This document shows, piece after piece, positions 58,015 to 59,204 of a stretch of 64,000 nucleotides of DNA. Position 1 is the stretch's first letter. Each line of letters starts with the position of its first letter. The notes under the pieces are model-generated. The model was given only the letters and a program-made list of their open reading frames with translations, searched no databases and had not been told where the DNA came from. The translations under genes were made by a program, and so were the position numbers. This DNA comes from Trueperaceae bacterium (GTDB lineage: Bacteria; Deinococcota; Deinococci; Deinococcales; Trueperaceae): NCBI GenBank assembly GCA_965215565.1, contig CBDCDZ010000004.1, positions 896,001 through 960,000 on the forward strand, in the 5' to 3' direction.

Positions 58015-58048
58015 AATGCGCTGCAGCTTTCACTGCGGCGCGTTTTTT
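58015..58048 (+). terminator. Intrinsic terminator after the desaturase gene
   Basis: AATGCGCTGCAG-CTTTCA-CTGCGGCGCGTT followed by a T run. Confidence 0.65.
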
Positions 58049-58097
58049 ACGAGCATAAGTTCCGCTTACAAGTTCATCTTGGTATAACAGAACTCTC

Positions 58098-58607
58098 ATG
58101 CGTTGGGCTGACTTCTATTTCAACAGCAAAAGGTATTCGCTCAGTCACCTTGATGATTTAGAGGTCACTTATACGCAACCAGCGAAAGGTAAAAATTCAG
58201 AACGCACCTACAATGTGAAGGTTGAATTTAGCAATCATTGCTTCACAACTGACCGGATGTACGACCCTGCGCTTGAATATATACCAGGTGGAGACAAGAG
58301 AGTTTTTGATTTTGGGCGTTACGAGCTAAGCCATTCACTTCCCCGCATCGTTCAAGAATTGGCAGAGCGCAGATGTTATTTCGCCAGTAGAGTTCAGGGA
58401 AACTTCATGACCGTTGAAGTCACAGTAGATAACGATAACTACGTCGTGTACTTTTACGTCAAGAAGTTCGGTAAGAGATTAGTGCTCATTGTGCAGTCAG
58501 CCTACATCAACGATGATTATGTTCAGAGCTACAACGACAAAAAGATTGGGTTCTTTACCATCTTGTATAAGGTGCAAAAAGGAGAACGAATAAAAAGTCC
58601 ACGCTAA
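58098..58607 (+). CDS. HtrC/YjaZ-like protein (169 aa), AT-rich
   Basis: Motif order W..F, LS.LD, Y.Q...GK, S.HCFT, R.F...RY.L, L.V.SAY, FFTI.Y matches my recollection of E. coli YjaZ (HtrC); not confirmed by search. Confidence 0.7.
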   Translation: MRWADFYFNSKRYSLSHLDDLEVTYTQPAKGKNSERTYNVKVEFSNHCFTTDRMYDPALEYIPGGDKRVFDFGRYELSHSLPRIVQELAERRCYFASRVQGNFMTVEVTVDNDNYVVYFYVKKFGKRLVLIVQSAYINDDYVQSYNDKKIGFFTILYKVQKGERIKSPR

Positions 58608-58754
58608 GAAAGATGGCAGCCTCTATAAAAAGAAGCTGCCGAAATCTTTTATTCTACCGCTGAGCCTTCTTGAGTATACCCACGCTTGGGCGGGAACCAC
58701 TAAAAATGTGGTGAGCATCGGCGCACAGCAAAGGCTGTTCAGTTCACACCGATA
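58604..58754 (-). ncRNA. Putative ~150-nt structured ncRNA convergent with the HtrC-like gene
   Basis: Near-consensus promoter, consecutive hairpins whose mismatches are G-U only on the minus strand, terminator ending at the CDS stop. Confidence 0.7.
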
Positions 58755-58760
58755 GCATAG

Positions 58761-58790
58761 ATAATAGCATAAAAGCGCCTTATTTGTCAA
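58761..58790 (-). promoter_or_regulatory. sigma70-type promoter for the putative ncRNA
   Basis: TTGACA-N18-TATTAT with extended TGn. Confidence 0.75.
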
Positions 58791-59204
58791 TCTTTTGGCA
58801 ACCGCAAAGTCCAAAATCGCCTTCGAAAGCAAGGTCCACTCGAAGCTAACGCACCCTTCCACCCTCAACTTAGCGGCATTTTTGGGCGCGACTAGGGCGA
58901 CCGCGCTTTTTAATCGAAGGTCAATATGCCCTTTTGCTTATCCAGGTGCCGACTTTGCGGTAGCCCTGGCGTTTCTCTTGAAATATCTCAGCCCATTAGC
59001 GTCAATCACTGACTGTCAATTTAGCCTTCAATGACCTCGAGCCCTCCAAAAATTCCCTTTCAACCTCTTGCAAGGCGACTCAAAACGATGTCGTCAGGCT
59101 GACACACCTCTCCCTATAGCTTGTTACCCTACTTGCTCGCAGCTAAGCAAGCTGCAACATCCTGCACAACAAAACTGCACGAAACAAGTCCAAGGGGGCT
59201 TTTT

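Follow-up and report, generated by a model that had tools for sequence, protein, structure and literature searches.

A gene of the YjaZ/HtrC family and a structured noncoding RNA (ncRNA) that faces it tail to tail form a conserved protein-RNA module, with hosts that include Pseudomonadota, Acidobacteriota, Binatota, Synergistota, Verrucomicrobiota, and Deinococcota. The module was found in a 64,000-nucleotide stretch of a Trueperaceae genome (the window). We think that the unit is probably an RNase-like toxin with an RNA antitoxin, where toxicity, binding, and defense are predictions. Computation shows the pairing, the RNA fold, the mobility, and the asymmetry of loss, and it predicts the protein fold and active site.

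RESULTS

The initial annotation of the window described a 169-amino-acid open reading frame (ORF) in an AT-rich cassette, with a promoter element 9 nt before the ATG, and both the coordinates and the base composition bear this out. The ORF, at 58098-58607 on the plus strand, has 169 codons, and the GC content of the cassette is 0.43 against 0.58 for the whole window, while GC3 is 0.49 in the ORF against 0.79 in the upstream gene. An extended -10-like sequence, TGGTATAAC, lies at 58080-58088, exactly 9 nt 5' of the ATG, and no obvious Shine-Dalgarno sequence precedes the ATG within 58080-58100. Thus, the mRNA of the YjaZ-family gene is probably near-leaderless. The features of the region are as follows.

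58042..59025, no strand: variable insert that contains the cassette, flanked by a desaturase-like gene and an MFS gene
58080..58088, plus strand: candidate extended -10-like promoter of the YjaZ-family gene, from sequence
58098..58607, plus strand: YjaZ/HtrC-family protein, 169 aa (PF27200, NF007263, structure model, conservation)
58606..58640, minus strand: predicted intrinsic terminator of the RNA, 10-bp stem 58640-58615, U-rich tail abutting the ORF stop codon
58606..58753, minus strand: predicted ncRNA of ~148 nt, structural homologue of Escherichia coli SroH (fold, covariation, model R1)
58761..58790, minus strand: predicted sigma70-type RNA promoter, 11/12 consensus positions, extended -10

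The site of the insert is variable: the same-genus genome G148 aligns through 58041 and resumes from 59026, the alignment of a second, G206, runs up to 58023, and the insert 58042-59025 was not found at the desaturase/MFS site in two same-genus genomes. G148 has a different AT-rich stretch of ~580 bp at that site (L118, ~922-1501), which suggests an insertion hotspot. A separate element of ~170 bp (window 58797-58968) adjoins the RNA promoter; it ends in a short inverted repeat and matches sequence elsewhere in two same-genus genomes at 83% and 75%.

By profile comparison, the ORF product is a member of the YjaZ/HtrC family, as its motif order had led the initial annotation to claim. The precomputed family assignment is PF27200 (named YjaZ), and NCBIfam model NF007263 matches over the full length of the protein (residues 13-168 of 169; E = 1.1e-9) with 38.6 bits, a score far below the equivalog cutoff of 324 bits. 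The structure model (pLDDT 93.6) has a helix at residues 72-86 and strands at 93-95, 103-108, 114-124, and 127-137. BECR RNases are defined by a helix and a four-strand meander with Ser or Thr on strand 4 (PMC3482391), and the model has that helix followed by a four-stranded meander. A BECR (RelE/colicin-like) RNase core is predicted at about residues 37-143. Structural matches to BECR/RelE-type proteins were weak but consistent, in favor of the RelE/BECR-like fold that had been put forward for checking: 22 of the 24 best VIA matches are what we take, by title, to be RelE/ParE/YoeB/HigB/BrnT/CdiA-type toxins, and the best BFVD matches are polyvalent/MuF phage proteins. Conserved residues are H17, H47, R68, R74, S78, Y115, and S134-A-Y136. 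H47 is invariant (110/110 homologues) and position 134 is Ser in 102 and Thr in 7 (109/110); the two supply the N-terminal His and the strand 4 Ser/Thr of a BECR RNase.

On the opposite strand, the RNA promoter has its -35 at 58790, an 18-nt spacer, and an extended -10 that ends at 58761. Shuffled sequence holds on average 1.5 promoters and 4.0 terminators per 3 kb, and a lone promoter and terminator therefore are not above chance in that comparison; the evidence is instead the conservation of both at homologous loci. Promoter-like motifs occur at the equivalent position in most of those loci, and the terminator hairpin ends within 15 nt of the yjaZ stop in 60 of the 64 convergent loci in which one was detected (in 5 further loci none was detected). 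The median hairpin-to-stop distance in the 64 is 4 nt, and overlap between RNA and coding sequence is nil, which agrees with the minimal antisense overlap noted at the outset. The RNA strand folds better than all 200 shuffles (z = -3.64), and model R1 scores the window RNA at 56.9 bits, with the window included in its training set. The RNA is single copy in the genome. We infer that the ~148-nt RNA is transcribed in this genome, and the ~150-nt convergent, structured transcript that was first proposed to end at the ORF stop stands on the same promoter, terminator, folding, and conservation.

The RNA appears to form a three-way junction that a long-range pseudoknot closes, with the terminator after it. 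All parts lie on the minus strand.

58717..58753: 5' domain (covariation)
58753-58746 with 58724-58717: helix P1a, 92% of cells paired, double changes in 6/7 pairs
58742-58739: bulge with the 5' strand of the pseudoknot, within the 5' domain
58738-58725: hairpin P1b, within the 5' domain
58660..58715: three-way junction region (covariation and motif-anchored pairing)
58715-58714 with 58667-58666: junction helix P2
58711-58697: junction hairpin P3
58694-58679: junction hairpin P4 with conserved loop
58678-58668: conserved A-rich linker, 3' of P4
58663-58660: 3' strand of the pseudoknot, just 3' of the three-way junction

What had been called a multi-hairpin RNA is indeed structured and covarying, but it is more than a row of hairpins. 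Covariation was measured in the 30 of 50 RNAs that share the two-stem 5' domain of the window, in a structure-blind MAFFT alignment. Cells were paired in 81% of cases against 65% in shuffled and 32-46% in slid controls, and double changes numbered 130 against 49 in controls; the covariation check suggested earlier thus came out in favor of a conserved fold. P1a, P1b, and P4 were well supported, while pairing was 52% for P2 and 72% for the pseudoknot, both lowered by one-base register shifts. When pairing was anchored on motifs, the two core P2 pairs were canonical in 49/50 and 47/50 RNAs, alternating between CG, UA, and GC, and the third pair was weak. An alignment-free score of cognate pseudoknot strands was 8.72 against 7.44 ± 0.24 and exceeded all 2,000 permutations; restricted to 24 distinct classes, 3 of 5,000 permutations were as high. 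Moreover, nine SroH-type RNAs share the topology (98.4% paired; 23 double changes versus 8.7), with pseudoknot variation in one of four pairs only, in one sequence. Kinship among the RNAs inflates all of these controls. Two results speak against the junction fold: the minimum-energy fold of the window RNA is a different, long hairpin (-55.5 versus -42.0 for the junction fold without the pseudoknot), and RNAalifold recovered P1 only. The bases of loop and linker are highly conserved and single stranded, and some are invariant.

The layout of the window recurs in E. coli K-12, as the initial annotation stated: yjaZ (plus strand) ends at 4190325, and sroH (minus strand) spans 4190327-4190487, 1 nt from the yjaZ stop. 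SroH fits the fold topology of the window RNA. In the comparison with Rfam, the window RNA matched neither the sroH family (RF00372) nor any other Rfam family, L001 and L003 alone among 20 loci reached the RF00372 gathering threshold, and the Rfam model contains the terminator stem alone. SroH is an observed transcript. Among 5,426 E. coli genomes, yjaZ matches 3,741 and the SroH core 3,742, as totals unmatched per genome. Four copies of the module (L063, L088, L034, and E. coli L003) adjoin thiamine genes (thiC, thiazole synthase, or thiH), probably by chance or through a shared insertion site.

Protein and RNA travel together. We collected 45 loci by the protein: 24 genes from the same phylum (301 genomes), 4 from another phylum (401 genomes), 16 hand-picked plasmid records, and K-12. 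The RNA was found by profile or covariance model in 38 of them. The profile matched 35 loci and none when loci were shuffled, a count that is partly circular because many matched loci are training sequences; L023, L034, and L114 were found by covariance model R1 only. Another six (L020, L037, L106, L107, L108, and L115) have a promoter, a matching topology, and a terminator by eye only. The last, L013, has no downstream DNA: at the end of its contig, a transposase-like fragment interrupts the locus. Thus, none of the 44 assessable protein-picked loci had yjaZ without the RNA, and the expectation that homologues would carry a convergent promoter and structured RNA was borne out. In the reverse direction, a 19-base RNA pattern matched 58 GTDB stretches. 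In 41 of these, a yjaZ gene or fragment lies no more than 1.5 kb away, convergent in nearly every case; 6 of the 58 look like chance matches, leaving 52 genuine loci. A full RNA stands without an intact nearby gene in 11 of the 52; remnants of the gene are clear at L055 and weak at L091 and L054, and one of the 11 lies at a contig end. Stops or frameshifts break six of the 41 RNA-adjacent genes, although assembly errors may account for some of these. The RNA often occurs without an intact gene, but the gene was never seen without the RNA in assessable loci, as one would expect of a protein that does harm when the RNA is missing. The RNA at L065 (1483-1585) immediately precedes an unrelated ORF of ~300 amino acids, possibly DUF3800-like by motif, and has perhaps been re-used by another protein.

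The pair is patchy and mobile. A homologue occurs in 724 plasmid records, 370 of them from Klebsiella and many near-identical, and a 2,462-bp ColE1-type plasmid has no sizeable annotated gene other than the yjaZ homologue, which faces a convergent match to Rfam sroH. Within the phylum, 19 of 301 genomes carry a homologue. In the other genomes of the host's own family that were searched, the protein was found in none of 102 and the RNA in none of 110; the host order is also that of the genomes with a Deinococcus plasmid copy. Flanking genes vary widely, with replication-type HTH genes, transposases, phage portals, Mob, and restriction genes among many housekeeping genes. A replication-type HTH_36/DnaD-like gene lies upstream of yjaZ in L031, L049, L056, L095, L107, and L117, and such copies may thus ride on small plasmids or integrated elements. 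A divergent subtype lies between insertion sequences and beside a restriction endonuclease gene on a Klebsiella plasmid (L037, 2477-3190) and is present in several hundred Klebsiella/Enterobacter plasmid records.

Viral contigs also carry the RNA. The window-type pattern gave seven matches, two with yjaZ and four with the RNA alone, and the SroH-type pattern gave 17. By eye, 8 of the 17 are full RNAs; yjaZ accompanies 5 of these and is missing beside the other 3. The RNA cores without yjaZ are these.

L099, 2939-3118: directly before a tmRNA match
L100, 1241-1441: right after a tRNA-Cys gene
L101, 2983-3086: amid eight tRNA genes
L097, 2928-3043: RNA core without yjaZ

DISCUSSION

How the RNA acts on its partner is most likely as a folded molecule. 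The RNA does not overlap the coding sequence, its complementarity to the mRNA is not in excess (-65.4 versus -61.2 ± 4.2 kcal/mol), and no extended complementarity to the 5' untranslated region (UTR) or coding sequence was seen. Moreover, the layout is convergent in the window and most loci but not in all: the RNA lies upstream on the same strand as yjaZ in L022, L033, and L113 only, and in L090 it follows yjaZ on that strand, under a promoter of its own. A type I-like mechanism, in which the convergent RNA would pair with the toxin mRNA in its 3' UTR and cause its decay, draws on the predominance of the convergent layout and on the terminators, only 27/64 of which look bidirectional, such that toxin mRNA may run into the RNA gene. 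Overlap with the 3' UTR would depend on where the mRNA ends and is impossible in the same-strand loci, however, and an antisense RNA needs no covarying tertiary fold, and we consider antisense control hardly probable. Even less probable, and largely refuted, is that a terminator and promoter merely travel with a mobile gene and make no functional RNA. A lone promoter or terminator match does not exceed chance, but coincidence does not account for compensatory changes across phyla or for the observed transcript of SroH.

We favor, with somewhat better than even confidence, a YjaZ-family RNase toxin that is neutralized by direct binding of the SroH-like RNA in a type III-like manner. The cassette would be a two-gene mobile toxin-antitoxin module and the protein an endoribonuclease of BECR fold. 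Its active site would consist of His47, which precedes the core helix, and Ser134, which lies on the fourth strand, an arrangement like that of the colicin D/PBECR-like branch, and tRNA or mRNA would thus be the likely target. The RNA, made from its own strong promoter, would fold into the compact pseudoknotted junction, bind the protein, and neutralize it, perhaps with the conserved single-stranded loop and linker as a recognition site or pseudo-substrate. If transcription stopped by plasmid loss or phage takeover, the RNA would decay and free the nuclease, and the result would be addiction and probably abortive infection.

The main counter-evidence to an RNA antitoxin is that an sroH deletion in E. 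coli is viable and reported to be envelope-stress sensitive, as described in PMC5389530 and PMC13572404. A chromosomal toxin that is weak or poorly expressed could explain the viability. SroH overexpression is unremarkable in the account of PMC4606813, and PMC3318445 lists sroH as lost in several E. coli lineages. The viable deletion would also suit a ribonucleoprotein whose RNA serves as a cofactor, guide, or sensor to activate or aim the nuclease, or whose protein is a catalytically weak RNA chaperone or processing enzyme. Such a particle draws on the same pairing and fold evidence and on the highly conserved loop and linker, but the RNA outlasts the protein and, in assessable loci, never the reverse, which speaks more for a protective RNA than for a cofactor that the protein requires, and the RNA alignments show no variable guide-like segment or repeat array; we regard it as unlikely. 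An autonomous catalytic or regulatory RNA, such as a self-cleaving ribozyme or a trans-acting small RNA, with the protein as passenger or maturase, seems to us improbable. The compact pseudoknot with invariant single-stranded bases, the stand-alone copies in phage tRNA regions, the full-length and processed forms reported for SroH, and the binding of SroH to kbl mRNA in vitro that is described in PMC6172242 all speak for it. It is at odds, however, with the lack of any Rfam ribozyme or riboswitch match, with the RNA's own promoter and terminator, and with a yjaZ gene or fragment beside the RNA in 41 of the 52 genuine RNA-first loci, across phyla.

With ToxIN, CptIN, and TenpIN, the favored toxin-antitoxin pair shares a predicted endoribonuclease beside a pseudoknotted ncRNA and carriage on plasmids and prophages, and to that extent the type III-like label first given to it holds. 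Membership does not. Those systems have tandem antitoxin repeats in a promoter-repeats-terminator-toxin operon, a short H-type pseudoknot, and a ToxN-like toxin fold, whereas the cassette has one RNA unit per locus, a separate RNA promoter that is usually convergent, a supported ~110-nt three-way junction with a long-range pseudoknot that is not H-type, and a predicted BECR protein. Tandem repeats and a single operon are given as defining features in PMC13682666. Neither ToxN, CptN, nor TenpN was among the matches listed in the sequence and fold searches, which point to BECR. We rejected membership on the grounds of single copy, own promoter, mostly convergent layout, and a toxin fold that is predicted to differ.

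BECR RNases (RelE/ParE, BrnT, colicin D, CdiA-CT, and PBECR) share the helix and meander, the N-terminal His, and the Ser/Thr on strand 4, but the YjaZ-family model has an extra N-terminal hairpin and C-terminal helix, and the flanking genes examined include no conserved protein antitoxin or immunity gene. To our knowledge, the known BECR members use protein antitoxins. The txpA/RatA loci, a convergent type I system of Gram-positive bacteria, likewise place a toxin gene tail to tail with a ~150-nt RNA; their toxin is a small membrane peptide, whereas here it is a 169-amino-acid folded protein and predicted enzyme, with no coding overlap and no fixed orientation. E. coli yjaZ/SroH is closest, with a homologous protein, the same layout, and the same RNA topology, although the sequence of the window RNA has diverged beyond Rfam detection. 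Finally, AbiF-RCd22 is described as a toxin neutralized by direct binding of a neighboring ncRNA that is active in cis and in trans, in an anti-phage context (10.1101/2025.04.15.648962). In that account, AbiF belongs to the Abi_2 proteins and has a link to Cas13 ancestors, and its RNA has two repeated motifs; we saw no homology to the YjaZ cassette, and unrelated toxins evidently can use an RNA antitoxin.

Phage-borne copies of the RNA alone recall the antitoxin mimics of ToxIN/CptIN/TenpIN-type systems, and it is possible, as a hypothesis, that they are antitoxin decoys. A bolder reading, which we hold tentatively, is of a widespread and undescribed YjaZ-SroH RNA-antitoxin family that serves plasmid addiction and abortive phage defense and that some phages counter with stand-alone RNA decoys in their tRNA arrays. 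It would comprise, at the same somewhat less than even confidence, the first BECR/RelE-fold RNase known to us under a single, independently transcribed, pseudoknotted RNA, and E. coli K-12 might carry such a pair unrecognized next to rpoC. No publication that connects yjaZ with sroH was found in the literature searched (open main texts, two 2026 preprints included). For two long-standing E. coli K-12 orphans, yjaZ/htrC and SroH, the work offers one testable function, and it gives SroH its first structural model. If this is true, RNA-antitoxin systems would gain a new toxin fold and gene layout, and the RNA-only phage copies would be a new lead to RNA-based anti-defense. The family is present on hundreds of plasmid records and may help plasmids persist.
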